A DNA stretch of 64,000 nt from Verrucomicrobiia bacterium (lineage in GTDB: Bacteria > Verrucomicrobiota > Verrucomicrobiia > JADLBR01 > JAIBCM01): assembly GCA_019694135.1 (NCBI GenBank), contig JAIBCM010000002.1:22143-86142 (forward strand), read 5' to 3'. The position numbers were made by a program, and so were the translations under genes. Positions 6,621-46,962 of this stretch are shown here, one piece after another (positions within the stretch are counted from its first letter, which is position 1; the number at the start of each line of letters is the position of its first letter). Under the pieces are notes generated by a model. The model saw nothing but the letters and a program-made list of their open reading frames with translations. It was not told where the DNA came from and searched no databases.

Positions 6621-6691
6621 GGAATGATCATTCATTAAGCGATCTGGCGACAAAATCAATGAACAACCCTAATGGGGAGAGAATTAATGAG

Positions 6692-7789: not shown

Positions 7790-7802
7790 AATTTCGTAAA
7801 GG

Positions 7803-14202: not shown

Positions 14203-14249
14203 TTTTTCTTTTCAGATATTAAAATTTTTGGAAAGGTTCTTGCCTTTAT

Positions 14250-15374: not shown

Positions 15375-15405
15375 GCGTTTTGCAATTTGCTACAGCAAGC
15401 GTAAT

Positions 15406-15939
15406 TTAAAGAACAATCATGGAATGAACATTGTAATCCATCAATTTCTCTCGACCTTTTAAAAAGCTAAGCTCGATTACAAAAGTGATTTCTTGCAAGT
15501 CAGCTCCTAAACTTTTGATGAGATTAGCTGCTGCAGCTGCCGTACCGCCCGTGGCGAGAACATCGTCGACAAGAGCCACTTTTTGACCTGGCGCGATAGC
15601 ATCTTCATGCACTGCTACTGTACTGGTACCGTATTCAAGTTGATATTCTTGTTCGATTGTTTTGTAAGGCAGTTTTCCTTTTTTTCGAATTGGCACAAAG
15701 CCAACCCCTAGTTGACATGCCACTGCTGCGCCAAAGATAAAACCTCGCGCATCAACACCGACGATAGTGTCGATTCTTTTTTTTGCGTAGCGCTCAACAA
15801 TTAAATTAATGGTTAATCGAAAGAGTTGGCCCGATTGAAGAATGGGTGTGATATCGACAAATTTCACTCCGGGCTGAGGAAAATCATCCACCGTGCGAAG
15901 TGAGCGAGCGAGTCGGTTAATAGCGCTATTCATTTCCAT
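15406..15939 (-). CDS. apt: Adenine phosphoribosyltransferase
   Basis: PRTase motif VALVDDVLATGGTAAA. Length is ~175 aa. Confidence 0.8.
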   Translation of the reverse strand: MEMNSAINRLARSLRTVDDFPQPGVKFVDITPILQSGQLFRLTINLIVERYAKKRIDTIVGVDARGFIFGAAVACQLGVGFVPIRKKGKLPYKTIEQEYQLEYGTSTVAVHEDAIAPGQKVALVDDVLATGGTAAAAANLIKSLGADLQEITFVIELSFLKGREKLMDYNVHSMIVL

Positions 15940-15956
15940 AACGCGAGAACTTTAAA

Positions 15957-25096: not shown

Positions 25097-25939
25097 TTAA
25101 CCGAGATTGACTTCGGTAATGAAAGCAGCATTGCCGAATTTCTTTTGAAATTCAAGTTTGAGTTTTAAAAAATCGCAATTTTTTTCTAGTAACCCAAACA
25201 TCGTGGCGCCGCTGCCGCTCATCATGGCAGCAAAAATGCCAGGTTGAGATTTGAGCCAGATTTTAATTTCTGGCAAAAGAAAATATTTGGAGAAAACGGC
25301 GGGTTCCAGATCGTTGCGCATTTCGCCCCATGGAAACTTTCCTTCCGCATCTCCTTTTTTTGCAGAGTGGGTGTGATAAGTTTGATAAGCCCATGCAGTG
25401 GGGACACCAAAACCGGGATTAATTAAAACTGCGCGTCTTGGTAAGTCTTCCAAATGAGAAAGAGGCGAAAGCTTCTCACCGCGTCCTTGGCAACGCGCAA
25501 CCGGTTCGCCTAGGAAGAAAGAAACATCGCTTCCTAATTGGGTGGCTAAAGCGAGGAGTTTTTCTAGAGAAAGTGGGCTTTGAAATAGTTCATTAAGCCC
25601 TTTCAAGGTATAAGCAGCATCGCTACTACCACCACCCAGTCCACCGCCACTAGGGATTTTTTTTTCTAAAACAATTTTTATGCTATCCGCAATACCAGTA
25701 TGTTCACGAAATAAATTTGCAGCTTTTACGACCAAATTATCAGCATTGATAGGCAGATTCGGGTCAGAACAAAGAAATTCCAAGTCGTGACTGGTGGAAG
25801 TTGTTTCAATAAGAAGGCGATCTTTTAGGGTGGTGCAAATCATGAGCGTGTCAATTTCATGAAAGCCGTCGGAACGTTTGCCCAGTAAATATAAAAATAA
25901 ATTGATTTTTGCAGGGGGAAAAAGCTCGAGCTTAGACAT
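25097..25939 (-). CDS. ispE: 4-diphosphocytidyl-2-C-methyl-D-erythritol kinase (MEP pathway)
   Basis: N-terminal PAKINLFLYLLGKRSDGFHEI and the GHMP-kinase Gly-rich motif. Confidence 0.85.
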   Translation of the reverse strand: MSKLELFPPAKINLFLYLLGKRSDGFHEIDTLMICTTLKDRLLIETTSTSHDLEFLCSDPNLPINADNLVVKAANLFREHTGIADSIKIVLEKKIPSGGGLGGGSSDAAYTLKGLNELFQSPLSLEKLLALATQLGSDVSFFLGEPVARCQGRGEKLSPLSHLEDLPRRAVLINPGFGVPTAWAYQTYHTHSAKKGDAEGKFPWGEMRNDLEPAVFSKYFLLPEIKIWLKSQPGIFAAMMSGSGATMFGLLEKNCDFLKLKLEFQKKFGNAAFITEVNLG

Positions 25940-26031: not shown

Positions 26032-27159
26032 TTATTTACGTTCTAAAGTAAAAACGTTAGAAGTCACTGCAGTTAATTGATCTGCACTTTCGCCTCGAAC
26101 TAAAACAGTGATTTGGCCAGCAGGCAAATCAGAACCGACTTTTTTCGCTTTGAAAAAGCCGCGAGTGTTCTTTTTGTTAAGCTTGAATTTAGTCACCTCT
26201 GTGAAAGCTGCAGGGGTGTTGTTGGAAGAACCGCTAGAGATTAATGCAATTTTAACGGAGGTTAATACGTTGCTAGAGGTACTAGTGATTTTTCCCTTAA
26301 CAGTGAAAGGCTTTCCTGTCTTTCTCTTTAATGTTTTGCTAGCCTTGGGTTTGATTTTTTCAAAAGTGTAACCTTGTAATAAATCAATAGCTTGTGGTTC
26401 GCCATAAACAAAGTCGTCCATGACCACTAAGTCGTTTTGTGCGTCATCTTCGATACCCGTGCCGATTGGTCGAGTGCCACTAGTTACACGAACTCGGGCA
26501 ATTTTTTCCTTGTTAGCAGTTGTGCTAACACCGAGAAATGAAAGACCGTTGTTAGCGGGTGTGGCATTGAAGATGCCTAAAGAACCTCCCGAAGCATCAA
26601 AACATTCAATGTGTGCACTTTGTGCTTGATCAACATCTGTGAAGACGATTCCAAAACCATTAACCGCTGCAGGAGTTGTTGTCCCCGGTAAAAAGAAGGT
26701 AACATCAAACGCATTGCTGCCTATAGGGGCGAATAATCGTGTGGGTGAAAAGGTTTGGAAAATGCTAAGATAATTACTGTTGATAACGGAGAATTTTTCT
26801 CCTGGATCATTGCCTAAGATACTTACAATAAAAGGAGCGCTGGCGCTTCCGAGTACCGCACCACGAGCGCTTGTGGTATTAAAAAAATCAGGGGGTAGTG
26901 GGGCGGAAATAGGATCTGTAAAATTGACTCCATCCCAGTTAATGCGACGAAATCCGTTAGTGAAGGTGCCAGTAGCGGCGCCATTATTGGTTCCTCCCAA
27001 TGCAACGGTATTGGTAAATTGATCAAAACTGGCTTGGATAGCTGCAGCATCCGCGCCGGCACTGGTAACGACATTTAGAGCAGCCGAACTTTTGTTAAAG
27101 TGAGCAGCCGCTATGGCAAGGGTTAAAGCAAAAGCTTTAGTAAAACGAAATGTTTTCAT
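26032..27159 (-). CDS. Secreted hypothetical protein (375 aa), Thr/Gly/Ser-rich with Lys-rich C-terminal domain
   Basis: Signal peptide MKTFRFTKAFALTLAIAAA. No recognisable catalytic motif. Confidence 0.5.
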   Translation of the reverse strand: MKTFRFTKAFALTLAIAAAHFNKSSAALNVVTSAGADAAAIQASFDQFTNTVALGGTNNGAATGTFTNGFRRINWDGVNFTDPISAPLPPDFFNTTSARGAVLGSASAPFIVSILGNDPGEKFSVINSNYLSIFQTFSPTRLFAPIGSNAFDVTFFLPGTTTPAAVNGFGIVFTDVDQAQSAHIECFDASGGSLGIFNATPANNGLSFLGVSTTANKEKIARVRVTSGTRPIGTGIEDDAQNDLVVMDDFVYGEPQAIDLLQGYTFEKIKPKASKTLKRKTGKPFTVKGKITSTSSNVLTSVKIALISSGSSNNTPAAFTEVTKFKLNKKNTRGFFKAKKVGSDLPAGQITVLVRGESADQLTAVTSNVFTLERK

Positions 27160-30336: not shown

Positions 30337-31353
30337 ATGGGAAGTTACTGGATTAAAGGCAACGATGGCAAAGAATATCGGGCGGAAGATGAGAGAATTG
30401 TCATCGAATGGATTCAGGAGAATCGTATTGCAGCCTTTACTCAAATCAAAAAAGAAGGGGAGAATGAGTTCCGAGCGGCGAAGTTGCATTCGGAGTTTGC
30501 TTCTTATTTTCCAACATCTAGTTCTTCCGAAGTTGTTACAGAAATTTCACCGCCTATCTTAAAGGAGGGCTCTCCTCAAGTGGCAGAAGGGGCGCATCTT
30601 CAAGTGGGCCTAGCCTTTCGTGAGGGATGGCAGCTTTTTCGTGAAAATATTTTGTTGAGTTATGGCGGGCTCATTTTTTGGATAGTCATTAATTTAACAA
30701 TTGGTTTTTTGCCAGCTTTAGCTCATTTTGTGTTGCGACCTGTTGTGGGCGATTCTCCCGTTTTGTTAGTGGGAATGCAGGGGATTAGTTATTTGTTGCA
30801 GTTAATTTTAGCTGGGCCGCTTTTGGTAGGTTTTTATAAATTTTGGCTTAATATGGTAGATAGGCGGGATCCGCACTTGCAGGATTTTTTGAATGGGTTT
30901 GAGATTTGGTTGCCAGCGATGTTAACGCAATGGCTCAAGGGATTGATTTTTATGGGGATTATTGCGCTTTCGGTTCCTTTTTTTGTCTCTTCATTTTTTT
31001 TCAAATTTCAGGATTGGATGTCAGGCAAAATTCCTCCCATTGAGGAGTGGGGATGGGTGTTAGTAGGTTTATTTGTTTTGGCGTTTGTCATTGTGGTGGT
31101 GATGACGTTATTTTGGTTTGTTGAGTTTTTATTGGCGGATCGTATTAGTTTAAAAGTGTTTCGATGTTTTAAGTTGAGCGCGCAGTTGGCTTTGAGAAAT
31201 ATTCCTGGCTTGGCTTTGCTTTTTACGTTAGTTACACTTTTTTTCATTGTAGCTTGTTTTACTATCGTTGGTGTTTTAATCATTTTACCTTGGCTTATCT
31301 TGTCAGTGGTTCATGGCTATCGACAGTTGGTGCCACGAAATAAGGAGTCTTAA
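30337..31353 (+). CDS. Membrane protein with N-terminal GYF-like (DUF4339-type) domain and polytopic C-terminal domain
   Basis: The N-terminal motif YWIKGNDGKEY...IVIEWIQENRIAAFTQI is followed by 5-6 TM helices. Confidence 0.55.
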   Translation: MGSYWIKGNDGKEYRAEDERIVIEWIQENRIAAFTQIKKEGENEFRAAKLHSEFASYFPTSSSSEVVTEISPPILKEGSPQVAEGAHLQVGLAFREGWQLFRENILLSYGGLIFWIVINLTIGFLPALAHFVLRPVVGDSPVLLVGMQGISYLLQLILAGPLLVGFYKFWLNMVDRRDPHLQDFLNGFEIWLPAMLTQWLKGLIFMGIIALSVPFFVSSFFFKFQDWMSGKIPPIEEWGWVLVGLFVLAFVIVVVMTLFWFVEFLLADRISLKVFRCFKLSAQLALRNIPGLALLFTLVTLFFIVACFTIVGVLIILPWLILSVVHGYRQLVPRNKES

Positions 31354-31426: not shown

Positions 31427-33379
31427 ATGGCAGCGGGTAATATTGAATCAAAGCTGGTGGAAAAGCGTGTATTTAAACCCTCAAAGGCGTTTGCGGAACA
31501 GGCGCGGGTTCGTAGTTTTAAGGAGTATCAAAAGATTTATCGTCAGTCGATTCAAGCGCCTGACAAATTTTGGGCAAAAGCTGCTACGGAAAATTTAACT
31601 TGGTTTAAAAAGTGGAATAAAGTTTGCCAATGGAAAGAGCCTTTTGCGAAATGGTTTGTGGGTGGCAAGTTGAATGTAAGTTATAACTGTTTGGATCGAC
31701 ATTTGGAAGGTGGACGTCGTAATAAAGCGGCGATTATTTTTGAGGGGGAACCGGGCGATTCTCAGACTTTGACTTATCAACAATTGCATCGCGAGGTGTG
31801 TCGTTTTGCGAATGTATTGAAGAAACATGGTATTAAAACGGGCGATCGAGTAGTTATTTATTTACCGCAAGTACCTGAGGCGGCGATTGCGATGTTGGCT
31901 TGCACGCGAATTGGCGCGGTCCACAGCGTGGTGTTTGGTGGATTTAGTGCTACGGCTTTGCGCGATCGTATTAATGATAGTAAGGCAAAACTGGTTATTA
32001 CTTCGGATGGAGGATTTCGTCGGGGGTCGGCACATGCTTTAAAGCCGGCGGTGGATGAGGCATTAAAGCAGACGCAGTCGGTGAAAAGTGTGATTGTTTT
32101 GCGTCGCACCAAGATGGAAGCGCACATGGCGGTGGGACGCGACCATTGGTGGCATGAAGAAGTGGAAAAGGTTTCGGATGTTTGTGAGCCGGTAAAATTG
32201 GACAGTGAGCATCCGCTTTTTATTCTTTATACCAGTGGCAGTACGGGTAAGCCCAAGGGCATTTTGCATACGACAGGTGGGTATTTGTTGGGCGCTCATT
32301 TAACAACGAAGTATGTTTTTGATATTCGAGAGGATGATATTTTTTGGTGCACAGCGGATGTGGGCTGGATTACGGGCCACACTTATACGGTGTATGGAGC
32401 GTTATCGAATGGTGCGACGACTTTGATGTATGAAGGTGTGCCGAATTATCCGCAACCAGATCGGTTTTGGTCGATTATTAATAAGTATAAGGTGAATATT
32501 TTTTATACCGCGCCTACAGCGATTCGTTCCTTTATCAAAGCAGGTGATGAATGGCCAAAGAAACATGATTTATCGAGTTTGAGGTTGTTGGGTTCAGTAG
32601 GTGAGCCGATTAATCCTGAAGCTTGGATGTGGTATTATAATAAAATTGGATATAAACGTTGTCCGATTGTGGACACGTGGTGGCAGACGGAGACGGGAGC
32701 GCATATGATTACGCCGTTGCCAGGAGCTACGCCTTTGAAACCGGGCACAGCGACTTTACCATTTTTTGGGATTGATGCTGCAGTGGTGGATGATCGGGGT
32801 AAGGAGGTTCCTTTTAATTCGGGTGGTAAATTGGTGATTCGCAAACCGTGGCCTTGGATGTTGCGCACGATTTATGGCGATGAAGCGCGTTATCGTCAGA
32901 CGTATTGGAGCGAGGTGAAAGGGTGTTATTTCACGGGAGATGGTGCGCGTCGCGATAAGGATGGTTATTTCTGGATCGTGGGTCGTATTGATGACGTGCT
33001 CAATGTTTCTGGCCATCGTTTAGGGACGGCAGAAATTGAAAGCGCTTTGGTAAGTCATCCGAAGATTGCGGAAGCGGCGGTTGTTGGACGCAATGACGCG
33101 TTGAAGGGCCAGGCGGTTGTAGTTTTTGTTACAGTGAAAAGTGGCGTGTCGACGGGTAATGGGTTGAAGGAAGAATTGCGTGCCCATGTTGCTAAGGAGA
33201 TTGGACCGATTGCAAAACCGGACGATTTGCATTTTACGGAAGCACTTCCTAAGACGCGAAGTGGTAAAATTATGCGACGATTGCTCAAGGAAGTGGCAGC
33301 GGGCAATGAAATTAAGGGTGACACGACGACGTTGGAAGATTTTGGCGTGATTTCCAAATTGCGTGCGATTGAAGATTAA
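31427..33379 (+). CDS. acs: Acetyl-CoA synthetase (AMP-forming)
   Basis: 650 aa with the AMP-binding motif [11 protein letters not shown] and a conserved Acs N-terminus. Confidence 0.9.
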
Positions 33380-33396
33380 TAAAATTGGGCTAGTTT

Positions 33397-35370
33397 ATGC
33401 CAGCATCACTCACATCGGTTTCAGGGAAAAGTTCTAGTAGAATTGAGACGGTGAATTTTGATTTGGAATCGCGAGTCAATGCGGCGATTCATGCGTCTCA
33501 AAATCATCTGCTTTCTTTACAACATCCTGATGGTTATTGGGTGGGAGAGTTAACCGTCGACACCACTTTGATTTCGGATCTGGTGCTTTTTATGCATTGG
33601 CGGGGTAAGGTGGATTTTGCGAAGCAAGCGAAATGCGTGAAGCATTTGTTAGATCGTCAGTTGCCAGATGGTGGTTGGAATATTTATGTGAATGGCCCCA
33701 GTGAGGTTAATGCCAGTGTTAAAGCTTACTTTGCTTTAAAATTAGCCGGTTTATCGCCTCAAGAGCCTGCGATGAAAAAAGCGCATGCCAATATTTTGCG
33801 TTTGGGAGGAATTCCTAAAATGAACACTTACGCGAAATTAAATTTAGCGTTGGTGGGACAATTTTCTTGGAAATATCTTCCGATTATTCCTGTTGAGATT
33901 ATTTTGCTTCCCAAATGGTTATATTTTAATATTTACGAAATGTCTTCTTGGAGTCGGGCTATGCTTTGTCCGCTCGCTATTATTAACCATTTTCGACCCA
34001 CACGTCCACTTCCGCCGGAAAAACAGTTGCATGAACTCTTTCCTTACGGAACGGAGCATAACGATTTTTCGTTAAAGTATGATTCAAAGTTTTTTACTTG
34101 GCGCAATTTTTTCCTGCGTTGGAACGATTTTTTAAATTTTGTGGATGGTTTGCCTTATAAACCTTTTCGTTCTGTAGCATTGAAGAAAGCTGAACAATGG
34201 TTGTTGGCGCGAATTAGTGAAGGCAGCGATGGGTTGGGGGCGATTTATCCTGGTATTTTTAATGCCATTGTTGCTTTGGAATGTCTCGGTTACTCCGATG
34301 AACACCCCATCATGCAAAAGCAGTTAAAACATTTTGAAGAATTGGAAGTTGACGATATTGTAAATAACGATTTTCGTGTGCAGCCCTGCTTATCTCCTGT
34401 ATGGGACACCGCTATTACTTCAGTGGCATTGGCTGAATCGGAAGTGCCCGCTGATCATCCTGCACTGCAAAAAGCGGCCGATTGGTTGTTGAGCAAAGAA
34501 GTGCATTTTCGAGGTGATTGGCAATACAAAAATCCTTACCCTGTTGCTTCGGGATGGGCATTTGAGTTTAATAATGAATATTATCCCGATGTGGATGATA
34601 CTTTGAAAGTGCTTTTGGCGCTTCGCTTAGTACAAACTTCGAACGAATCTAGTAAACAAGAAGTCATAGAGCGGGCTTTAGGTTGGGTATTAAGTTTTCA
34701 ATGTAAAGATGGGGGTTGGGCAGCTTTTGACAAGGATGTGACGAAACATTGGCTGGAAGATGTGCCTTTTGCGGATCATAATGCTATTTTGGATCCTACT
34801 TGTAGCGATATCACAGCGCGCTGTTTGGAGTTGCTCGGCAAGTTGGGTTATCGCAATAACACGCGTTTTATTAAACGCGCTCTTGCCATGCTTCAAAAGA
34901 CTCAGGAATCGGACGGTTCCTGGTTTGGTCGCTGGGGCGTGAATTATATTTATGGAACGTGGCAAGTGTTGCGAGGGGTAAGTGCTTTAAACGAAAATAT
35001 GAATGAAGATTGGATTGTGCGTGGCCGCGACTGGTTAGAATCGTGTCAAAATTACGATGGAGGTTGGGGCGAAACGTGCGCGTCTTATGATGATTCCGCT
35101 TTAAAAGGAAAAGGTCCCAGCACAGCTTCTCAAACAGCTTGGGCGCTAATGGGTATCATTGCTTGCGGCGATCCTCATCGAATTAGCATTCAAAAAGGGG
35201 TGGATTATTTATTGCGCACACAAAATTCCAATGGGAGCTGGACAGAAGAAGAGACCACGGGAACGGGTTTTCCTAAGGTGTTTTATTTGCGTTATGATAT
35301 GTATCGCAATAACTGGCCTTTACTTGCTTTAGCGGAGTATAAGAAGTTGCGTGCCCAATTTCCTGCATAA
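33397..35370 (+). CDS. shc: Squalene-hopene cyclase
   Basis: The DVDDT active-site motif (YYPDVDDTLKVL) and multiple QW repeats (G/W-rich) are present. Length is 657 aa. Confidence 0.9.
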   Translation: MPASLTSVSGKSSSRIETVNFDLESRVNAAIHASQNHLLSLQHPDGYWVGELTVDTTLISDLVLFMHWRGKVDFAKQAKCVKHLLDRQLPDGGWNIYVNGPSEVNASVKAYFALKLAGLSPQEPAMKKAHANILRLGGIPKMNTYAKLNLALVGQFSWKYLPIIPVEIILLPKWLYFNIYEMSSWSRAMLCPLAIINHFRPTRPLPPEKQLHELFPYGTEHNDFSLKYDSKFFTWRNFFLRWNDFLNFVDGLPYKPFRSVALKKAEQWLLARISEGSDGLGAIYPGIFNAIVALECLGYSDEHPIMQKQLKHFEELEVDDIVNNDFRVQPCLSPVWDTAITSVALAESEVPADHPALQKAADWLLSKEVHFRGDWQYKNPYPVASGWAFEFNNEYYPDVDDTLKVLLALRLVQTSNESSKQEVIERALGWVLSFQCKDGGWAAFDKDVTKHWLEDVPFADHNAILDPTCSDITARCLELLGKLGYRNNTRFIKRALAMLQKTQESDGSWFGRWGVNYIYGTWQVLRGVSALNENMNEDWIVRGRDWLESCQNYDGGWGETCASYDDSALKGKGPSTASQTAWALMGIIACGDPHRISIQKGVDYLLRTQNSNGSWTEEETTGTGFPKVFYLRYDMYRNNWPLLALAEYKKLRAQFPA

Positions 35371-36063
35371 ATGGCGACACCTGTCTCTTTAGCTGTTTTT
35401 TTTGCTGTGCCTCATGAAGCTGCGTTATTGAAAAAAAAACTGAAATTTCGATGGCAAAAAAAAGGCGTTGGCTTGTTTTTTGCTGAAACTCGGGTGAGGG
35501 ATAAAACCATTCTTTTCGCTTGTTTAGGAATGGGCAAAGAAGCAGTGAAGAAAAATTTAACATTTCTTTTAGATTATTTTACTTTTTCTCAAGCGATTTT
35601 AGCGGGTTACGCTGGAGCGCTCGATCCCAAACTCGAAAAAGGAGATATTGTCATTTCTGATAAGCGATACTTGGATTTATTGCCTGATTTAAAATTAGGA
35701 AAAATTATTTCTGTTGATACAGTAGCAGCTACTGCCGAAGAAAAATATGCGCTATTTCAAAAAACTGGCGCTTCTGTTTGCGATATGGAGTATGAAGCAG
35801 CTTTGGTGATTTGTCAGAAACACAACCTTACTTTGTATTCGATTCGAGCTGTGAGCGACACGGCTCACGAGAATTTACCTTCAGGCGCGCTAGCAAGCGC
35901 TTTTGATTTAAAAAGGCAACGATCAACTCCTTTAAAGATTTTTTGCTATGGGATAAGACATCCTCGGAATATGATTTCTTTTTTTAAATTTGTTCATGGA
36001 CTGGCAAAATCTCAAAGAGCTTTAACACAAATCTTGATTCAAATATTAAAAAATCAATCTTAG
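35371..36063 (+). CDS. hpnG: Hopanoid-associated nucleoside phosphorylase (PNP/MTAN family, HpnG-like)
   Basis: The protein has the PNP_UDP_1 fold with GMGKEA and CDMEYEAA...IRAVSD motifs. The gene sits immediately 3' of shc. Confidence 0.6.
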   Translation: MATPVSLAVFFAVPHEAALLKKKLKFRWQKKGVGLFFAETRVRDKTILFACLGMGKEAVKKNLTFLLDYFTFSQAILAGYAGALDPKLEKGDIVISDKRYLDLLPDLKLGKIISVDTVAATAEEKYALFQKTGASVCDMEYEAALVICQKHNLTLYSIRAVSDTAHENLPSGALASAFDLKRQRSTPLKIFCYGIRHPRNMISFFKFVHGLAKSQRALTQILIQILKNQS

Positions 36064-38258
36064 TTTTGGATAATCATTGAAGCCACTCTTTTTCCGCTCC
36101 AAATGGCGCCCTCAATAGTTGCTGGCAAACCCGTGTTAGTCCAATCACCTGCTAAGTAAAAATTTTTCCACTGTGTTTGGCAATCAGGGCGATAGGGTAA
36201 TGTTTCAGGTCGCGTTTGAAACGTGGCATCGCGAGCGCGATAGATAAAATGGTGTAAGAGTTTAGCTGTCTTACTTTTTGGCAAAAAGCGATAACATTCT
36301 TGTAGTGCTAGTTGTAATAATTCTTCTTGAGAGGTTTTTTCAAACTCGTAAGCGGCGCTAATCACTAAGGCAACACTGGGATAAGCTGTTTTTTCCAGGT
36401 CAGAAATTTTGGTTTTGTTAAAGAGCCAGTGGATGGGTGAATCGAGAAATCCGAGAAAAGGCTCTTCGCAAATTTCTTGATCGAACCAGAGATGGATTCC
36501 GATAATAGGGGAGCCGTGCAAGTGGGAAATTTGTTGTGCAAGCGAACTGTTTTCGGGTAGTAGTTTTCGGATTGCGTGCCAAGGCATGGCAGAAATAATG
36601 GTATCAGCTTCTAAAATAGTGCCATTTTGGAGTTCTACTTTTGCTGCTAAAGCATTTTCAAAATGAATTTTTTGAATGGCTTGACCGCAAAGAATTTTAC
36701 CGCCTGCTGCTTGAATGATATTAGCAGCAGGCTGAACGAGTAATTGGCTAAGCCCTACTCGACTAAAAAGAATAGTGGAATCTTCTCTGGAACCAAGAAA
36801 GGCACGACGGATAACTTCGCCAAACAGAGAGGCTGATGCGGTAGAGATGGTTTCGTTGAGCGCAGCAATACAAAAGGGTTCCCAAAGACTGCGAATGGTA
36901 TTGGGTGTCTGTCCACACGCTTGCAACCATTCTTCAGCGGTGGAGGAGCGCCATTTTTCTCCTTTCGAATCGAGTTTGGCAGAAATGCCAACTTCCATAG
37001 CGCGAAATTTTTCAGAAAGAGAAAGTTCCTGAAAACCGAAAATAGCGCTTGCGAGATGAAAAGGGGCGGGCAAAGCAGCAGCTTGTAATCGAGTGATATG
37101 TTTGGCTTCGCTGACATAAGGCACATTGAGTTTGGTTTCAGGTCGTAGAAGATGTTGCGAGCCGATACGATTAAGAAGTTCTAAAGTCGCGTGATAGCAA
37201 CCCATTAATATGTGTTGTCCGTTATCAATGTTGTCACCCGTTTTGGGATCGCGAAAAGAATGGGAGCGTCCTCCTAATGTTTGACGAGCTTCGACAAGGG
37301 TGATTTCGTGGCCGCTACGGGTAAGATGCACGGCCGTACTTAAACCTGCGACACCACCGCCAAGAATTAAGATTTTTTTTGTTGGAACGAGGGTATATTT
37401 TTTATTTTTTACCTTTTTTCTTTCCTGACGAATGGCGCGTTGCATGAGCCAGGCTTTTTTCATTTTTGAAAAAGCAATAGGTTTGTGCCAAATATCGTAA
37501 TCTTGATTGCGCGCTTTTTGAAGCATTTCAAAATAAATGCTGCACATGATTTGGGCGGCCAGCATTTTGGGTTTGTCTTCAGGTGGAAGGGCTCGTTCGG
37601 CGGCAGCGTAGAGATGGTAGGCGCGTTCGCCCATCAAACGGAAAAGATTTAGAGCGCGCTCATTAATGTGAGTTTTTTTTAATTCTTCGCGAGAATAGTT
37701 TGCGCGTTGAAAATCTTCTTCTGGTAGATAAATGCGCTGATTGGTCAGATCGGTTTTTACATCGCGAAGAATGTTTGTGGTTTGAAATGCGAGACCTAAA
37801 AGTTCTGCGTAATGTTTTGTTTGAGGATTGGTGTAGCCGAAAATTTCGATGCTAACCAATCCCACGCAGGAAGCGACGCGATAACAGTATTGGCGAAGTT
37901 GTTCCCAGCTTTCATAAACTACTGGTTCGAGATCCATTGCGACGCCGTTTATAATTTCTTGCAGATAAATTTCGGGAATAGAATAGTGTTGAATGACTTG
38001 GGCGAGTTCGCGCGCTAGAGGTAAAGTTAAACTGTTTTGATTTTGATAACAGAGCTCAATTTCTTTTCGCCATTGATCCAATTGTTTTTGTTTTTCGGTA
38101 AGAGATAGAGTGGTGGAATCCGCGATATCGTCTACTACGCGGCAAAAAGCGTAAAAGATCGACATGGCATTTCTTTTTTCAGCGCTAAGAAAAGAAAAAG
38201 AAAGCGCCAGATTGGAACCGCTTTTTTTTGTTATGCTAGTTGCGCTGGAAGTGCTCAC
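36060..38258 (-). CDS. Fusion protein: presqualene-diphosphate synthase (HpnD-like SQS/PSY domain) + FAD-dependent hydroxysqualene dehydroxylase (HpnE, amine-oxidase fold)
   Basis: The N-terminal ~290 aa carry the Asp-rich motifs FCRVVDDIAD and LRDVKTD. The C-terminal ~440 aa begin with the FAD Rossmann motif ILILGGGVAGLSTA. Confidence 0.8.
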   Translation of the reverse strand: MSTSSATSITKKSGSNLALSFSFLSAEKRNAMSIFYAFCRVVDDIADSTTLSLTEKQKQLDQWRKEIELCYQNQNSLTLPLARELAQVIQHYSIPEIYLQEIINGVAMDLEPVVYESWEQLRQYCYRVASCVGLVSIEIFGYTNPQTKHYAELLGLAFQTTNILRDVKTDLTNQRIYLPEEDFQRANYSREELKKTHINERALNLFRLMGERAYHLYAAAERALPPEDKPKMLAAQIMCSIYFEMLQKARNQDYDIWHKPIAFSKMKKAWLMQRAIRQERKKVKNKKYTLVPTKKILILGGGVAGLSTAVHLTRSGHEITLVEARQTLGGRSHSFRDPKTGDNIDNGQHILMGCYHATLELLNRIGSQHLLRPETKLNVPYVSEAKHITRLQAAALPAPFHLASAIFGFQELSLSEKFRAMEVGISAKLDSKGEKWRSSTAEEWLQACGQTPNTIRSLWEPFCIAALNETISTASASLFGEVIRRAFLGSREDSTILFSRVGLSQLLVQPAANIIQAAGGKILCGQAIQKIHFENALAAKVELQNGTILEADTIISAMPWHAIRKLLPENSSLAQQISHLHGSPIIGIHLWFDQEICEEPFLGFLDSPIHWLFNKTKISDLEKTAYPSVALVISAAYEFEKTSQEELLQLALQECYRFLPKSKTAKLLHHFIYRARDATFQTRPETLPYRPDCQTQWKNFYLAGDWTNTGLPATIEGAIWSGKRVASMIIQN

Positions 38259-38272
38259 GGAGATTTAAAAAT

Positions 38273-39124
38273 TTAAAGTTTAAAGCAGGCTTTGGGTAAG
38301 AGTCGCAGAATGTCCCATTTTGAAAGTGTGGGACGTTGATGGAGTGTGTAATAATTAATTTTTTCTATTTTTCGTAAAATCTCGGTTCCGCCTAGCCAGG
38401 TGAGTCGAATTTCGAATCTTAGCCCGCGAGTGAGATATTCCGGTAAACGTTTGCCTTCGTTAAAAATTTGCCAGGTGCGATCGACTTGGAATTTCAACAA
38501 GTTCCGAAATTGAGGAGTGTCGGCATTATTTTTTAACTGCGTTTCATCGATTTGAAAAGTGTCCATATCATTTTTCGGAAGGTAAATGCGATCTTTCAAA
38601 AGATCAACGCTCACGTCTTGCCAGAAATTGGCAAGTTGCAAGCCAGTGCAAATTTTATCGCTCAGTTGATGAAGTGTTTCGTCGCGATAATTAAAAACAT
38701 GAAGAACCAAACGTCCGACTGGATTGGCGCTACGACGACAGTAGTCTAAAACCTCATCAAAGTTAGTATAACGAGTTTTGACTATGTCTTGTTTGAAAGC
38801 AGAAATAAGATCGCGAAATAGTTGAATGGGAAGCTGACATTTTTCAATGGCTTCGCGCAATGCGATAAAAATCGATTCTTGATTTTTGCCTTCTAGAGCT
38901 AGATCTAAATGATTTTCCCAACGTTCTAGAAGTTCAATTCTTTCGGGAACAGTAAGGGTTTGAACGGTTTCATCGGCAAAGTCATCCGCGGTGCGAGCAA
39001 AAGCGTAGACCGCGTGAATATATTTACGTTGAGGTTGAGGCAAAAGCCGCGAGCCTACAGGAAAATTTTCGTAATGGTCTTGCGCCTGGCGAGAGCATTG
39101 GAGGTAGGCTTCTTCGAGAGTCAT
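38273..39124 (-). CDS. hpnC: Squalene synthase family protein HpnC (hydroxysqualene synthase-like)
   Basis: HYENFPVGSRLLP and ARTADDFADE motifs. Length is 283 aa. Confidence 0.75.
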   Translation of the reverse strand: MTLEEAYLQCSRQAQDHYENFPVGSRLLPQPQRKYIHAVYAFARTADDFADETVQTLTVPERIELLERWENHLDLALEGKNQESIFIALREAIEKCQLPIQLFRDLISAFKQDIVKTRYTNFDEVLDYCRRSANPVGRLVLHVFNYRDETLHQLSDKICTGLQLANFWQDVSVDLLKDRIYLPKNDMDTFQIDETQLKNNADTPQFRNLLKFQVDRTWQIFNEGKRLPEYLTRGLRFEIRLTWLGGTEILRKIEKINYYTLHQRPTLSKWDILRLLPKACFKL

Positions 39125-39128
39125 GGAT

Positions 39129-39482
39129 TTAGTGAGTTGAAATTTCCTGGTGAGTTAAGCCATTTCTAACTAAAGCGTGAGGTTGCAAAAGCCAAACATT
39201 TTGTTGTTTGTAAACTCGATCTCCCGCGCTTTGATGTTCCAGGCCTTCGATTTCATTTCCTTTTTTAATTCCTATAAAATAGATGTCGTAATCGGTTTGG
39301 TCAGGGTGAGAATAAATTTCGGCGGTGACATCGTTGTTTGTGTCGATTTCCAAATCAATTCGGGAATAGTCATTGTCTTTTTGATAAAGAAATTGTCTTT
39401 TCCCACTGGTATTAAGTTGGGTGGTGGTTTGACAGGCGGATAAAAGACAGACGGCCAAGAAAAAGATGCTAAAATGTTTCAT
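39129..39482 (-). CDS. Small lipoprotein (117 aa), first gene of the hpnC-hpnDE operon
   Basis: Signal peptide with lipobox LLSAC. The gene lies 4 nt upstream of hpnC on the same strand. Confidence 0.55.
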   Translation of the reverse strand: MKHFSIFFLAVCLLSACQTTTQLNTSGKRQFLYQKDNDYSRIDLEIDTNNDVTAEIYSHPDQTDYDIYFIGIKKGNEIEGLEHQSAGDRVYKQQNVWLLQPHALVRNGLTHQEISTH

Positions 39483-39558: not shown

Positions 39559-40638
39559 ATGAACCAGTCGGAAAATGAGACGCCTACAAGGTTAGGTTAC
39601 CGAATGCCTGCGGAATGGGAACCGCATGAGGCTACGTGGTTGAGTTGGCCGCGTCGTGATGGGATTTCGTTCCCAGGACGATTTGATTCCATTCCTTCCT
39701 ATTGGGTGCGAATGGCGGAACTTTTGTCTGAGGGGGAGTTGGTCAGGATTAACGTGTTTGACGAGGCGCATGAAGCGGAGGTTAAAGAACATTTGGTGAA
39801 AGGGGGATTAGAAAAAAAATTAAATCAACGGATTTTTTTACATCGTTTTCCGGCGTATGAACCGTGGTGTCGAGATCATGGTCCGATTTTTGTTGTGAAA
39901 GAAGAAGCTCCTGAATTGGCGATTGTGGATTGGGGTTATAATGCGTGGGGAGGTAAATATCCCCCTTATGATTGGGATGATGTGGTGCCGACGCACATCG
40001 CTAATTTTTTAAAAGTTCCTTGTTTCCAACCCAAAATGATTTTGGAAGGAGGCTCGATTGATGTGAATGGTTGCGGCTCACTTTTAACGACAACCTCTTG
40101 TTTGTTAAACCCGAATCGCAATCCGGATTTGAGTCAGGAAACTATTGAGAATTATTTGAAAGATTATTTAGGGGTAACGAACATTTTATGGCTTGGAGAG
40201 GGGATTATTGGGGATGACACCGATGGTCATGTGGATGATATCACGCGTTTTGTTTCGCCCACCACTATAGTTACTGGCATTACTGACGATCCGCAGGATC
40301 CTAATTTTGAGCCGCTCATGGAAAATTATCGTCGTTTATTGGAGATGAAAAATGAGGAAGGAAAGCCTTTCCATGTTTGTTCGCTGCCTATGCCGACTCC
40401 GCAGAGTTATGAGGGGCAGCCCTTACCAGCGAGCTATGCCAATTTTTATATTGGAAATAAAGTGGTGTTGGTGCCCATTTATGATTGTGATAATGATGGA
40501 GAGGTTTTGGTAACTTTGCGGGAATTATTTCCCAAACGAAAAGTGCATGGGATTGATTGTCGGGATTTGATTTGGGGATTGGGCGCGTTTCATTGTGTTA
40601 CGCAACAACAGCCTGCCATTAAAAAAGTGAAGCAATAG
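39559..40638 (+). CDS. aguA: Agmatine deiminase (porphyromonas-type peptidyl-arginine deiminase family)
   Basis: The motif MPAEWEPHEATWLSWP and the conserved C-terminal Cys region GAFHCVTQQ are present. Confidence 0.8.
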   Translation: MNQSENETPTRLGYRMPAEWEPHEATWLSWPRRDGISFPGRFDSIPSYWVRMAELLSEGELVRINVFDEAHEAEVKEHLVKGGLEKKLNQRIFLHRFPAYEPWCRDHGPIFVVKEEAPELAIVDWGYNAWGGKYPPYDWDDVVPTHIANFLKVPCFQPKMILEGGSIDVNGCGSLLTTTSCLLNPNRNPDLSQETIENYLKDYLGVTNILWLGEGIIGDDTDGHVDDITRFVSPTTIVTGITDDPQDPNFEPLMENYRRLLEMKNEEGKPFHVCSLPMPTPQSYEGQPLPASYANFYIGNKVVLVPIYDCDNDGEVLVTLRELFPKRKVHGIDCRDLIWGLGAFHCVTQQQPAIKKVKQ

Positions 40639-40662: not shown

Positions 40663-41163
40663 ATGAAAAAATCCCTAGTTTCCCAATGGAGTATGGTCAC
40701 GGCGATGGTTGCCGGTTTAGTAGTTGTTTGTAATCATTCTGTTCAAGCGGAAGAGCTTTCACCTGAACAAGGAAGCCAAAAAATGATTAAGCGTTTTGAC
40801 ACCAATCATGACGGAAAATTGGATTCCAAAGAGCTGGAAGTGATGAAGGCTAAGATGGCTGAGATGCGAAAAGAGCATCAAGAAAGAATGCTGGAAAAAT
40901 TTGATAAAAATAAAGATGGACAGTTGGATGACCAAGAAAGAGCTGAGATGCAAAAAGCTAGGCAAGCCTGGCAGGAGCAGCGCGCGGAAAATAGAGAAAA
41001 AGTTTTTGAAAAATTAGATTTAAATAAAGATGGAAAGTTGGACGAAACCGAATTGAAAAAGGCTCAGGAAAAACGATTGGATAAAGCAATGTCTTTAGAC
41101 ACGAACAAAGATGGGAAAATAGATAAAAAAGAGTGGGAAGCTCGGAAGCCGCAGAAAGAATAA
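40663..41163 (+). CDS. Secreted EF-hand calcium-binding repeat protein
   Basis: A signal peptide is followed by four DxNxDGKxD loops: DTNHDGKLD, DKNKDGQLD, DLNKDGKLD and DTNKDGKID. Confidence 0.75.
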   Translation: MKKSLVSQWSMVTAMVAGLVVVCNHSVQAEELSPEQGSQKMIKRFDTNHDGKLDSKELEVMKAKMAEMRKEHQERMLEKFDKNKDGQLDDQERAEMQKARQAWQEQRAENREKVFEKLDLNKDGKLDETELKKAQEKRLDKAMSLDTNKDGKIDKKEWEARKPQKE

Positions 41164-42483: not shown

Positions 42484-43521
42484 ATGTTAAGAAAGTTGCT
42501 TGGATTTTTTTCCAGCGATATTGGTATTGATTTAGGAACAGCCAATACGCTGGTTTTTGTTAAGGATCGCGGTGTTGTGTTGCGAGAACCTTCGGTTGTG
42601 GCCGTGCAATCTGGCACGCGCAAGGTAGTAGCAGTGGGCGATGAAGCGAAGCGCATGTTGGGCAGAACGCCTGGAAATATTACTGCGGTGCGGCCTTTGA
42701 AAGATGGGGTGATTGCGGATTTTGATATTACGGAAGCGATGTTGCGTCATTTTATTAAGAAGGTGCATCATGGTAGTAAGTTGGTGAGTCCGATGGTTGT
42801 GATTGCAATTCCTTCAGGCATTACGGAAGTTGAAAAGCGTGCGGTTCGCGAGTCGGCTTTGCATGCGGGTGCGCGGGAGGTTTATTTGATTGAGGAGCCG
42901 ATGGCGGCGGCGTTGGGTGTGGGATTGCCGGTGCAAGAAGCGGCGGGAAATATGATTGTGGATATTGGTGGTGGGACGACGGAAATTGCGATTATTTCTT
43001 TAGGTGGCATTGTTTATTGTCGCAGTGTACGAGTGGCAGGCGATGAGTTGGATGAGAGTATTAGCATTTATTTAAAGCGTGCGTATAATTTAATGATTGG
43101 TGAAAGAACTGCGGAAGATATTAAAATAAAAATCGGTTCGGTGCATGTGATGGATAAAGAGATGACGATGGAAGTGAAGGGACGCGATTTGGTGGCGGGT
43201 TTGCCGAAGACGTTGACGATCACTTCTCAAGAAGTGCGGGAGGCATTGTTGGGGCCGGTGCAAACGATTTTAGAAGCGATTCGTATTACGTTGGAACGTT
43301 GTCCTCCAGAGTTATCGGCAGATTTGATTGATCGTGGTATTGTTTTGGCGGGTGGCGGTGCGCTGTTGCGAGGTATGGATCGTTTGATTTCTGAAGAGAC
43401 AGCATTGCCTGTGTATGTAGCGGAGGATCCCTTGAGTGCGGTGGTGGAAGGCACAGGTAAAGTGTTGCAAGAATTTAAATTTTTAAAGAAAGTGGCTTCT
43501 TACGAAGGGAAAGCCAGTTAA
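42484..43521 (+). CDS. mreB: Rod shape-determining protein MreB
   Basis: Actin-fold motifs DLGTANTLV and GGGTTEIA. Confidence 0.9.
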
Positions 43522-43623
43522 TAAAGCGGTGAGGCGAAAGAATAAAAAATATATTTTTACTCTAAAATTGGCTGAATGGCTGCGGAAGACAGCGCGTTTT
43601 TAATAGGAAGGCGTTGTGCGATC

Positions 43624-44442
43624 ATGAAAAAAGTTTATTGGTTAATTTTGATCATTATCCTTTCCCTTATTAGTGCTCTTTTTTTGATTCCTAAAGATGT
43701 GGCACAGGATTGGAAGTTGAAAGTTTTGGAGATAACATCTCCTTTTTTTAAGGGTATTGCGAGAGTGAAGTGGCAGGTGACGGTATTAGGCAATGATTTG
43801 AAGTCGATTAATCAAATAAAAAAAGAAAATTTAGAGTTGTTAGCGATTAATGCGCAGTTGCGTGCGGAGAACGAGACGTTTCGCAATTTGGAAAAAGAAA
43901 ATCAGGAATTAAAAAAGGCATTGCGATTTCAGCAAACCAGTTCTTTTCAATTGTTAATTGCCCGAGTGATTGCGCGAGAACCTTCGACGTGGTGGCAATA
44001 TATTACTATTGATCGTGGGGAGGAAGATGGTTTGGAGGTGGATCAAGCAGTGGTTTCTCCACAAGGATTAATTGGAAAAGTGTCGGCGGTGACGCCGGGA
44101 ACGGCTAAGGTGGTTTTATTGGGTGATGAAAATTGTCGTGTTTCAGCGACGTTGGAAGGCAGTAATGAGCAAGGGATTGTAGTGGGTCAGTTAACGGAGG
44201 TAGGAGGTGTGCAATGTCGGATGACATTTATTTCTCGAACTGCTGCGATTGATATTGGTCAGAAAGTTTATACTTCGGGGTTGGGTGGAGTTTTTCCGCA
44301 GGGATTGTTAGTGGGTGAGGTCGCGGAATTGGTTTCGGCCAATGAGAGCGGTGGTTTTGGATTGTACCGTGAAGTGTTAATTATGCCTTCGGCTGAATTA
44401 TCAAATTTAGGCGATGTTTTTGTGGTCATTCGAAAAAAATAG
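43624..44442 (+). CDS. mreC: Rod shape-determining protein MreC
   Basis: TM anchor, coiled coil, and the beta-domain motif SPQGLIGKV...SGLGGVFPQGLLVGEV. Confidence 0.8.
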   Translation: MKKVYWLILIIILSLISALFLIPKDVAQDWKLKVLEITSPFFKGIARVKWQVTVLGNDLKSINQIKKENLELLAINAQLRAENETFRNLEKENQELKKALRFQQTSSFQLLIARVIAREPSTWWQYITIDRGEEDGLEVDQAVVSPQGLIGKVSAVTPGTAKVVLLGDENCRVSATLEGSNEQGIVVGQLTEVGGVQCRMTFISRTAAIDIGQKVYTSGLGGVFPQGLLVGEVAELVSANESGGFGLYREVLIMPSAELSNLGDVFVVIRKK

Positions 44443-44445
44443 ATT

Positions 44446-44970
44446 ATGGCACTGACGCTTTTAAGTTTGGTAGGTGTGATTGTTTTGGCGATCCAGAAAT
44501 GTTTTCAGGCGCCAGCTTGGATGCAAGGCGCTAATTGGGTTTTTGTTCCCTTGTTAGTGATCTATGGGACATTATTTTTATTGCCTTACCAAGCTTGGAT
44601 TTTGGCGTTGGTGTTGGGAGTGTTAACAGATTTTCTATCCGAAGCGCGATTGGGCAGCAATGCGGTGTGTTTATTGATTTTATCGGGGTTGCTGCAGACT
44701 CAATATTTGGAGCGTTGGCGTAAAAAAATTTATGCGCAAATTTTTTTGGCTTTAGTGGGGACGATGTTTTTTTTAATTGTGGATTATCTTTCGTTTTCAT
44801 TGCAGCGCGGCCATTTTTTTTATAGTGACGGTATTTTATTTAAGATGACGGTGGCTTCTTTGTTGAATGCTTTTATGGCGCCGTTTGTTTTTAGTGGGTT
44901 AAATTGGGGCTTGAAAAGGTTGGGCGCGCAACTGCCTTCTGATTCTATCTATGAGGAGGAAGGGGTATGA
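44446..44970 (+). CDS. mreD: Rod shape-determining protein MreD
   Basis: Small polytopic membrane protein placed between mreC and mrdA. Confidence 0.7.
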   Translation: MALTLLSLVGVIVLAIQKCFQAPAWMQGANWVFVPLLVIYGTLFLLPYQAWILALVLGVLTDFLSEARLGSNAVCLLILSGLLQTQYLERWRKKIYAQIFLALVGTMFFLIVDYLSFSLQRGHFFYSDGILFKMTVASLLNAFMAPFVFSGLNWGLKRLGAQLPSDSIYEEEGV

Positions 44971-46958
44971 TTTTAGATGCAGTAGGGCGTCATTCGGCAC
45001 GAGTGAAGGTTTTGGGATTGATGATTTTGCTTGGTTTGGGGATTTTGGTACTGAAGCTTTATCAGTTGCAAGTGGGAGAAGGGCAAGCTTCTGTAGAGCG
45101 AGCGCGGCAGCAAAGTGTGCGCACGATTTTGCTTTCTCCGGCGCGTGGGCTTGTGGCAGATCGATGGGGGGTTCCTTTAGCGGAGTTGCGTCCCAGCGTG
45201 GATATTGATTTGTACTTGCTTGAGATTAAAAGTTATTATCGAAAAAAATATCGTCATTTGCCTTATATCAAAGTGCAAGTGCGTCGCGGAGGAGTCACTA
45301 AGGCAGAGGATGAAGTGGATATTGTCAAGGTGGTTGAAGATAGTATTGCTCCATTGCGAGCGATTTTGGGGGACAAGTTGAATTATGATCCTGAGGCGCT
45401 GCGTTTGCATCAACGTATTCGGGAGAATGTGCCTTTTCAGTTGAAGAGCGATTTGTCATTTGGAGAGTTATCAAAAATTGTGGAACGCAATCCGGTTGTA
45501 CCTGGGGTTAATATTGCGCCGCGTCCGGTGCGCCGTTACGCGTATGGAGCAACGGGATGCCATTTGTTGGGTTATGTGGGGAAACCTCAAGAGGCTAAGC
45601 TTTTGGTTCGTGAAGGTAGAAAAATGGAGGTGGAAACGATTGGGAAAGCAGGTGTGGAATTTGCTTTGGATGATTATTTGCAAGGCGATCCGGGTTATCG
45701 AAATATTGAGGTGGATAGCTTGGGAAGTGTGCAACGCATTTTGGATCAGCAGCAGCCGACTTTGGGAAGTACAGTGTATTTGACGATTGATTTGCGTGTG
45801 CAACAAATTGTGGAGAAGGCGATGGCAGGTGTGGGGCGTGGCGCGTGTGTGGTGATGGATGTGCATAATGGTGATATTTTAGCGATGGTGTCGGTGCCCA
45901 ATTATGATCCCAATACGATTGTGACAAAGACGGGGTGGCAGGATGCGGCGTTAAATGAAGCGAAGCCTTTGATGAATCGGGCGTTGTCAGCTTATGCGCC
46001 AGGGTCCATTTTTAAACCGATTGTGGCTTTGGCTGCGCTGAAATATGACACGGTAACGCCTTCTTTTACTACGACGTGTTATGGCGGGATGCAAGTGGGG
46101 GATCGTTATCGAAAATGTTGGAGTTTTGATAAGGGAGGCTGTGGAACTTTATCTATGTTAGGGGCGATTCGGCGTTCGTGTAATGTTTACTTTTATACGG
46201 TGGGGATTCGAACTGGAATTGAAAAAGTATATGATATTGCGGATCGATTGGGTTTAGGGAAAAAATCAGGCTTACCATTGCGGGGTGAGGATCCGGGAAC
46301 GATCCCCTCATTGGATTGGATGAAGCGAACTTACCCGAAAGATCGATGGAGTAATGGGCACATGGCGAATATGGCAATTGGGCAAGGTTTTGTGCGTGTG
46401 TCTCCTTTGCAGATGGCGGGTGTGGTATCGGCCATTGCGAATGGAGGGACGGCTTATTATCCTCGCTTGATTGCTAAAGTAATGAATGCTGCGGGTGAGG
46501 TAGTGCGAGAAGATCCTATTCGAGTGAAGGGGCAGTTGGATATGCCTGCGGAAAAAATAGAAATTGTTCGGCAAGGTATGCGAGCTGTTGTGAATGAGGG
46601 AGGTGGAACGGGTTCGCGAGCGGCGGTAGAAAATTATGTGATTGCTGGAAAAACTGGCACGGCGCAATTTCCCACTCGCATTCATGGTCGTCAGGTCAAG
46701 GATCAGCGCACATGGTTTATGGCTTTTGGACCCTATGACGAGCCGCGTTATGCAATTTGTTTGATGGTAGAGGGAGGCGCTTCGGGGGGGGCAACGTGCG
46801 CGCCGATTGTGGGAGAGATTTATAAAGAAATTTTTGCTTTGGAAAGTTCCACCCAAGGTTATCAATTGACTTATTTAAAACCGTATCGTGGTCATTTTGA
46901 AGGTGTACAAGAAGTGACACCGGAACAAGATCAAAATCCTGCACCACCTCCGGAGTAA
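44967..46958 (+). CDS. mrdA: Penicillin-binding protein 2 (class B transpeptidase)
   Basis: Motifs SVPNYDPN, PGSIFKP (SxxK), SNG and KTGTAQ. Confidence 0.9.
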   Translation: MILDAVGRHSARVKVLGLMILLGLGILVLKLYQLQVGEGQASVERARQQSVRTILLSPARGLVADRWGVPLAELRPSVDIDLYLLEIKSYYRKKYRHLPYIKVQVRRGGVTKAEDEVDIVKVVEDSIAPLRAILGDKLNYDPEALRLHQRIRENVPFQLKSDLSFGELSKIVERNPVVPGVNIAPRPVRRYAYGATGCHLLGYVGKPQEAKLLVREGRKMEVETIGKAGVEFALDDYLQGDPGYRNIEVDSLGSVQRILDQQQPTLGSTVYLTIDLRVQQIVEKAMAGVGRGACVVMDVHNGDILAMVSVPNYDPNTIVTKTGWQDAALNEAKPLMNRALSAYAPGSIFKPIVALAALKYDTVTPSFTTTCYGGMQVGDRYRKCWSFDKGGCGTLSMLGAIRRSCNVYFYTVGIRTGIEKVYDIADRLGLGKKSGLPLRGEDPGTIPSLDWMKRTYPKDRWSNGHMANMAIGQGFVRVSPLQMAGVVSAIANGGTAYYPRLIAKVMNAAGEVVREDPIRVKGQLDMPAEKIEIVRQGMRAVVNEGGGTGSRAAVENYVIAGKTGTAQFPTRIHGRQVKDQRTWFMAFGPYDEPRYAICLMVEGGASGGATCAPIVGEIYKEIFALESSTQGYQLTYLKPYRGHFEGVQEVTPEQDQNPAPPPE

Positions 46959-46962
46959 TGTT

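Follow-up and report, generated by a model that had tools for sequence, protein, structure and literature searches.

An HpnD::HpnE fusion gene in a predicted squalene-to-hopene locus of a Verrucomicrobiia bacterium

In the three-step route to squalene, farnesyl diphosphate (FPP) is converted via presqualene diphosphate and hydroxysqualene by the enzymes HpnD, HpnC, and HpnE. A stretch of 64,000 nucleotides (nt) from a Verrucomicrobiia bacterium (assembly GCA_019694135.1, contig JAIBCM010000002.1, positions 22,143-86,142, forward strand; hereafter the window) carries a single gene that appears to encode the enzymes of the first and the third of these steps in one polypeptide. This raises the questions of whether the gene is a genuine fusion, how widespread it is, how it arose, and which pathway it serves. 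According to its profile matches, the gene at 36060-38258 on the minus strand is an HpnD::HpnE fusion in a hopanoid/squalene locus with HpnC, facing the squalene-hopene cyclase gene shc. The fusion is real and not an artefact, and it is also not new, being common in Verrucomicrobiota with the exact protein already deposited. The six open reading frames (ORFs) that an initial annotation of this DNA had proposed for the locus were all recovered at identical positions. The locus consists of the following features:

31427-33379, plus strand: acs, acetate-CoA ligase, 650 aa; TIGR02188 with 1031.9 bits against a cut-off of 724.95
33397-35370, plus strand: shc (hpnF), squalene-hopene cyclase, 657 aa; TIGR01507, both SQHop_cyclase domains
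35371-36063, plus strand: PNP_UDP_1 nucleosidase/phosphorylase, 230 aa; PF01048; probable divergent HpnG
36060-36063, both strands: overlap of the convergent stop codons, 'ttag', 4 nt
36060-38258, minus strand: hpnD::hpnE fusion gene, 732 aa; one unbroken ORF with GTG start
37431-38258, minus strand: HpnD domain, residues 1-276; TIGR03465 match at residues 10-276; putative step 1
37377-37430, minus strand: junction, residues 277-294; basic and sequence-variable, from the alignment with stand-alone HpnD and HpnE
36063-37376, minus strand: HpnE domain, residues 295-732; TIGR03467 match at residues 297-730; putative step 3
38273-39124, minus strand: hpnC, 283 aa; TIGR03464; putative step 2
39129-39482, minus strand: ORF of 117 aa with lipoprotein-type signal (…LLSAC), 4 nt upstream of hpnC; no Pfam or NCBIfam match

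Identity, anatomy, and predicted structure of the fused protein

Protein identities were assigned using NCBIfam/TIGRFAM equivalog hidden Markov models (HMMs) with curated cut-offs, supplemented by Pfam. Against the HpnE model TIGR03467, the fusion protein scored 424.5 bits (cut-off 283.05) over residues 297-730, corresponding to profile positions 2-429 of 430. For residues 10-276 HpnD (TIGR03465) was the best-scoring family with 261.9 bits (cut-off 278.6), leading the HpnC model (152.8 bits) and CrtB (up to 139.9 bits) by more than 100 bits. The 283-aa protein encoded next to it reached 323.4 bits with the HpnC model TIGR03464 (cut-off 250.45) and 170.4 bits with the HpnD model. Therefore, HpnC and HpnD have not been mistaken for each other, an exchange which the initial annotation had allowed for, and its call of an HpnD::HpnE fusion with a companion HpnC is borne out by the three models. 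Pfam placed SQS_PSY (PF00494) and Amino_oxidase (PF01593, 180.4 bits) in one chain of the fusion protein and matched PF00494 in HpnC with 224.4 bits. With E-values from 1e-78 to 1e-127 over a single unbroken frame of 732 codons, the matches are far beyond chance. Also, the genomic association of HpnD with hpnC and hpnE was found, since the hpnC stop codon lies 14 nt upstream of the GTG start of the fusion gene and HpnE is fused downstream. We regard the domain identities as established.

Both domains belong to superfamilies of carotenoid enzymes, so that the locus could be read as part of a C30 carotenoid pathway in which a CrtM/CrtB-like synthase is fused to a desaturase resembling CrtN or phytoene desaturase (PDS). 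Matches to CrtB (up to 139.9 bits) and to phytoene desaturase (148.4 bits), the closest solved structures, which are CrtM and plant PDS, and the fact that some bacteria can derive C30 carotenoids from squalene (PMC9907078) would fit such a pathway. It is nevertheless very improbable, because HpnE scored 424.5 bits against 148.4 bits for phytoene desaturase (cut-off 569.4) and HpnD 261.9 bits against 139.9 bits for CrtB, a dedicated hpnC lies directly upstream and shc opposite, and the profile scan of the ORFs detected neither crtN nor crtP in the 64-kb window.

For analysis of the domain boundaries, fused proteins were aligned with the stand-alone HpnD and HpnE proteins of a canonical split locus (L007). 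The stand-alone HpnD ends near residue 275 of the fusion protein and the stand-alone HpnE begins near residue 291, leaving a basic, sequence-variable junction of about 15 residues between the domains. The Asp-rich motifs D43/D44/D47 and D166/D170 align with those of stand-alone HpnD and are invariant in 88 fused homologues, as are the FAD/dinucleotide-binding residues G300/G302/G305, E323, and G330/R331 (GxGxxG, E323, GGR) and the C-terminal GDWT..P.T.E.A motif of the HpnE domain. All sequence motifs cited earlier for the locus (VDDIAD, DVKTD, ILILGGGVAGLSTA, and HYENFPVGS) were found in the translations. The integrity of the motifs is thus observed directly, and with the Asp-rich and FAD motifs invariant both domains look catalytically competent.

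An AlphaFold2 model built on the 88-sequence alignment had a mean predicted local distance difference test score (pLDDT) of 94.0 and a predicted template modelling score (pTM) of 0.93, with a pLDDT of 82 for the junction block 281-290. In the model, a short coil connects a long helix (265-284) to the first Rossmann strand (295-299). The pTM of 0.93 over the whole chain implies a fixed relative orientation of the two domains, which both remain intact and are predicted to form a single rigid unit. In structure comparison against the PDB, the C-terminal domain matched the fold of rice phytoene desaturase 5mog (TMt 0.87, root-mean-square deviation 2.4 Å), and no chain spanned both domains. No structure of an HpnD or HpnE was found in the PDB, the nearest entries by sequence being PDS, CrtM, and an HpnC (4hd1), which would make the fused protein a handy target for a first structure of HpnD plus HpnE.

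Distribution and origin of the fusion

A homologue search in a collection of 5.8 billion proteins (E <= 1e-10) gave 719 matches, and all of the 120 listed (45-93% identity, mostly 720-750 aa) contain both PF00494 and PF01593. Their sources are recorded as Verrucomicrobiia, Verrucomicrobiae, Methylacidiphilales, Opitutales, and Verrucomicrobiota. Cluster look-ups added cultured or named carriers, namely Methylacidiphilum kamchatkense Kam1, M. fumariolicum, and M. sp. Yel as well as Ca. Methylacidithermus pantelleriae. The conservation of the fusion and its taxonomic spread can be taken as established.

These data also bear on whether the single ORF could be an assembly or frameshift artefact merging two genes, the outcome which the initial annotation had named as a refutation. 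The source is a metagenome-assembled genome (MAG), and the MAG of the nearest relative (L001) does contain an out-of-frame stretch, located in shc. However, all 120 listed homologues, which stem from independent assemblies, share the architecture and the position of the junction, and the architecture recurs in complete genomes of cultured Methylacidiphilum strains (contigs of 2.2-2.5 Mb). An artefact is thereby effectively refuted and retains hardly any probability.

At 732 of 732 residues, the fusion protein equals GenBank MBX7157290.1, an entry annotated as "hydroxysqualene dehydroxylase HpnE" that derives from a 480-kb contig of a Verrucomicrobiae MAG. With this entry and an architecture widespread in Verrucomicrobiota, the novelty implied by the initial annotation was overstated. 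The UniRef name of the M. fumariolicum protein, 'Phytoene/squalene synthetase fused to flavin containing amine oxidoreductase', indicates that annotators have already noticed the fusion. Elsewhere the databases give the fused protein one name each ('HpnE' at NCBI, 'HpnD' at JGI). In the searchable literature, including the main surveys (PMC7306690, PMC9907078, PMC9543262), no mention of an HpnD::HpnE fusion was found. The locus by itself carries little weight, as public databases already contain its genes, its pathway, and the fused architecture. Its relevance lies in the fusion being the standard form across a phylum, hidden from gene-presence surveys by one-name annotation, and for the same reason, HpnD or HpnE may have been counted wrongly for Verrucomicrobia where the presence or absence of squalene genes was surveyed.

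The closest known systems are the fusion proteins of Methylacidiphilum (M. kamchatkense QDQ43223.1, M. fumariolicum CCG93128.1) and of Ca. Methylacidithermus pantelleriae (CAF0696301.1). They share the order of SQS_PSY followed by amine oxidase, the length of 725-750 aa, the place of the junction, the Asp-rich and FAD motifs, and the clade in the HpnD tree described below, but are only 38-42% identical to the protein of the window. In the window, shc and the nucleosidase gene lie directly opposite the fusion gene, while the Methylacidiphilum systems were compared by protein alone.

To trace the origin of the fusion, the HpnD domain alone was used for an exhaustive HMMER search of 1.84 billion representatives, and the best 150 matches were sorted by architecture. 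They comprised 18 HpnD::HpnE fusions, 21 proteins with double SQS_PSY, 104 stand-alone HpnD proteins, and 7 others; judged by architecture only, the 21 double-SQS_PSY proteins would be of the HpnC::HpnD type. In a neighbour-joining tree of the excised HpnD domains, calculated without support values and for these best 150 representatives only, all 19 HpnD::HpnE sequences (window included) fell within one clade of 24 leaves. The clade has five further leaves, namely two stand-alone HpnD proteins of full length and three sequences that seem to be truncated or frameshifted. This near-exclusive fusion clade favours a single origin of the fusion and suggests rare secondary splitting. Most likely, there was one fusion event, in an ancestral member of Verrucomicrobiota.

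The split locus L007 offers a plausible route. There, hpnC and hpnD overlap by 4 nt and hpnD and hpnE likewise by 4 nt, so that a minor alteration at the stop codon of hpnD suffices to join D and E; loss of this stop codon in an overlapping hpnD/hpnE pair would have created the fusion gene. The initial statement that steps 1 and 3 of the route are fused is true, but the pairing is simply a product of the canonical gene order hpnC-hpnD-hpnE, in which neighbours merge. The canonical split locus is reportedly the Zymomonas/Rhodopseudomonas type described by Pan et al. in 2015. Compared to L007, the locus of the window has the same three families in C-D-E order and likewise shc plus a PNP_UDP_1 gene. 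It differs in that D and E form one polypeptide, shc and the hpnG-like gene lie on the opposite strand, and no hpnH, ispH, or hpnN is found nearby.

Whether the fusion marks a physical HpnC-HpnD-HpnE metabolon is a further question. In such a complex, HpnD and HpnE would be present in a 1:1 ratio with a set interface, HpnC would be docked onto the fused protein, and the lipophilic intermediates, presqualene diphosphate and hydroxysqualene, would be handed from one active site to the next. The predicted structure, with its pTM of 0.93 over the whole chain and a junction pLDDT of 82, suggests a fixed interface and no loose tether, and the fusion has been kept in relatives down to 38-45% identity. 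A complementary HpnC::HpnD fusion has been described for Acidobacteria subdivision 2, some Actinobacteria, and Rhodospirillum centenum (PMC5462960), and about 21 proteins of the double-SQS_PSY type were among the best 150 HpnD representatives. Like the fusion studied here, the HpnC::HpnD fusion (PMC5462960) joins neighbouring hpnCDE genes and is lineage-restricted; unlike it, it combines paralogous synthases (steps 2 and 1), whereas the protein of the window connects the step-1 synthase with the step-3 flavoenzyme. On the other side, little is needed mechanistically to fuse overlapping neighbour genes and the outcome can be neutral, the enzyme of the middle step, HpnC, is the partner outside the fusion, and hpnC is not adjacent to the fusion gene in L002 and L010. 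A metabolon thus remains a doubtful, though not far-fetched, interpretation. Similarly tentative is the use of the HpnD::HpnE fusion (Verrucomicrobiota) and the HpnC::HpnD fusion (Acidobacteria and others) as 'Rosetta-stone' evidence for one HpnC/HpnD/HpnE complex. If true, the predicted rigid D-E interface would show how this complex is built, and the fused protein could serve to probe channelling, with any benefit of it, in the three-enzyme squalene route.

The putative pathway from squalene to hopene

By homology to the HpnC/D/E system, the HpnD domain would condense two FPP to presqualene diphosphate (step 1), HpnC would convert this to hydroxysqualene (step 2), and the FAD-dependent HpnE domain would turn hydroxysqualene into squalene (step 3). 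Thereby, two genes, hpnC and hpnD::hpnE, are expected to encode the whole three-step route from FPP to squalene. The cyclase Shc, which would form hopene or diplopterol from squalene, scored 715.6 bits with TIGR01507 (cut-off 431.1), matched both PF13249 and PF13243, and contains the motif DVDDT (DxDD). With this locus, an uncultured lineage of Verrucomicrobiae joins the likely producers of hopanoids.

In the nearest relative L001, shc (14102-16072, minus strand) was tried as a fragmented gene, an interpretation rejected since tblastn and translation revealed a full-length gene with an out-of-frame stretch. About 90 codons (about residues 80-170) are out of frame and include two in-frame stops, after which the frame is regained. 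Either the assembly is at fault here or the gene is a pseudogene, and for the window this is of no consequence.

The gene following shc had been annotated as an HpnG-like phosphorylase. Its product, deposited as MBX7157289.1 ("hypothetical protein K1X66_02730"), has the PNP_UDP_1 fold (PF01048, 73.7 bits), and its best NCBIfam model is HpnG (TIGR03468) with 77.3 bits, well under the cut-off of 187.1; the models for MTA/SAH nucleosidase and futalosine hydrolase reached 62 and 59 bits, respectively. Nucleosidase homologues (35-68% identity) always follow shc directly in L001, L009, L005, and L006, and the protein is homologous (E 2e-12) to hpnG of L007, which is a complete hpnC-D-E-shc-hpnG-hpnH-ispH...hpnN locus. 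The fold, the synteny with shc, and the L007 homology uphold the HpnG-like label, while the family cut-off does not; the protein is a probable divergent HpnG, an identity that rests on synteny. Its role downstream of shc would probably be side-chain extension, with hpnH encoded elsewhere. Scanning of all sizeable ORFs detected none of hpnH, hpnN, hpnP, hpnI, hpnJ, hpnK, and hpnO in the 64-kb window, in agreement with the earlier remark on the absence of hpnH, and extended hopanoid synthesis is therefore unproven. In L003 and L004, the unannotated convergent genes of 224-229 aa after the fusion were considered as divergent HpnG-like homologues and discarded, as BLASTP gave no similarity.

The position of acs directly upstream of shc had been taken as a sign that acetate activation is co-expressed with triterpenoid synthesis. 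Co-transcription of acs with shc is plausible and even probable, whereas a functional coupling of acetate activation to hopanoid synthesis has no support, because the adjacency is confined to close relatives and the MEP (methylerythritol phosphate) pathway, which the organism uses, does not start from acetyl-CoA. The two genes are adjacent only in relatives with at least 82% identity (L001, L009) and not in L005/L006, and the MEP pathway starts from pyruvate and glyceraldehyde-3-phosphate. The MEP pathway gene ispE was confirmed at 25097-25939 by TIGR00154 (197.1 bits, cut-off 138.7). The gap between acs and shc, given as 18 nt in the initial annotation, measures 17 nt (33380-33396).

Altogether, it is highly probable that this is an ordinary verrucomicrobial squalene-to-hopene locus with a natural hpnD::hpnE fusion of single origin and both domains intact. 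Several points weigh against this reading. The N-terminal domain of the fusion misses the HpnD equivalog cut-off (261.9 vs 278.6 bits), a near miss that is probably caused by divergence of the clade. The neighbour-joining tree behind the single origin has no support values and covers the best 150 representatives only. In two relatives with 52-55% identity (L002, L010), the fusion occurs without an adjacent hpnC. The HpnG cut-off is not reached, none of the further hopanoid genes lies in the window, and no assay of a fused-type enzyme was found in the searchable literature.

Gene order in relatives and further features of the window

The synteny of the locus is established for the relatives compared. 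In L009 (82% identity), the same locus is present, with aguA, hpnC, and hpnD::hpnE facing nucleosidase-shc-acs, while in L003, L004, and L011 (46-47% identity) only hpnC and hpnD::hpnE remain together, hpnC being directly upstream. The convergent stop overlap at 36060-36063, reported before, is real and comprises 4 nt ('ttag'), in which TAG ends the plus-strand gene and TAA the minus-strand gene. The corresponding overlap in L009 is 8 nt long, and in L001 (93% identity; Verrucomicrobiia ABC2.39) an extra ORF of 124 aa is inserted between the nucleosidase gene and the fusion gene. Owing to this insertion, the 4-nt overlap of the window, which is not conserved, is a local accident. The extra ORF of L001 (13002-13376, minus strand), absent from the window, encodes a Cys-rich N-terminus and a hydrophobic C-terminus. 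On the plus strand of the window, the start codon of the PNP_UDP_1 gene directly abuts the shc stop codon.

The 117-aa lipoprotein-type ORF upstream of hpnC is lineage-specific, with a copy of 84% identity in L001 and none in L009, and has no match in Pfam or NCBIfam. Scans for promoters and terminators gave results at chance level and were uninformative. Rfam and tRNA scans detected four tRNAs only, none of them inside the hopanoid locus.

Divergent from the hpnC operon, a gene at 39559-40638 (plus strand) has its best match in the agmatine deiminase family (299.3 bits, cut-off 483), and L009 carries a gene of this family at the same divergent place (913-1995). Synteny of aguAB with hpnN has been described in Methylacidimicrobium (PMC9543262). 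The agmatine deiminase gene by hpnC may be a coincidence or part of a recurring polyamine/hopanoid neighbourhood. It is followed at 40663-41163 (plus strand) by an ORF of 166 aa with a signal-peptide-like N-terminus and repeated EF-hand-like motifs ('D.N.DG..D..E'), which matched the XopAW family with 72 bits, below the cut-off; a similar EF-hand protein of 170 aa occupies the same position in L009. Directly upstream of acs, an ORF of 338 aa (30337-31353, plus strand) resembles a multi-pass membrane protein and has no Pfam or NCBIfam match; in L009, a 338-aa gene without Pfam matches is found at this position.

Elsewhere in the window, an ORF of 1304 aa (796-4710, minus strand) matched PBP1A (TIGR02074, 515.5 bits, residues 118-658) and PBP2/MrdA (TIGR03423, 444.2 bits, residues 758-1300) and seems to be an unusual fusion of PBP1A with PBP2. 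An mreBCD-pbp2-rodA cluster (42484-48078) encodes a separate, canonical PBP2. A single-chain protein of 1200 aa (15957-19559, minus strand), in which alpha and beta parts are fused, belongs to the indolepyruvate ferredoxin oxidoreductase family (NF009589, 505.8 bits, below the cut-off of 816). No Pfam or NCBIfam match was obtained for the minus-strand ORFs at 4554-6659 (701 aa), 6692-7867 (391 aa), and 26032-27159 (375 aa). The GC skew is positive in nearly all 2-kb bins of the window (1-64000), whatever the strand of the genes, with peaks of 0.3-0.39 around 42-52 kb and one near-zero bin at 52-54 kb.

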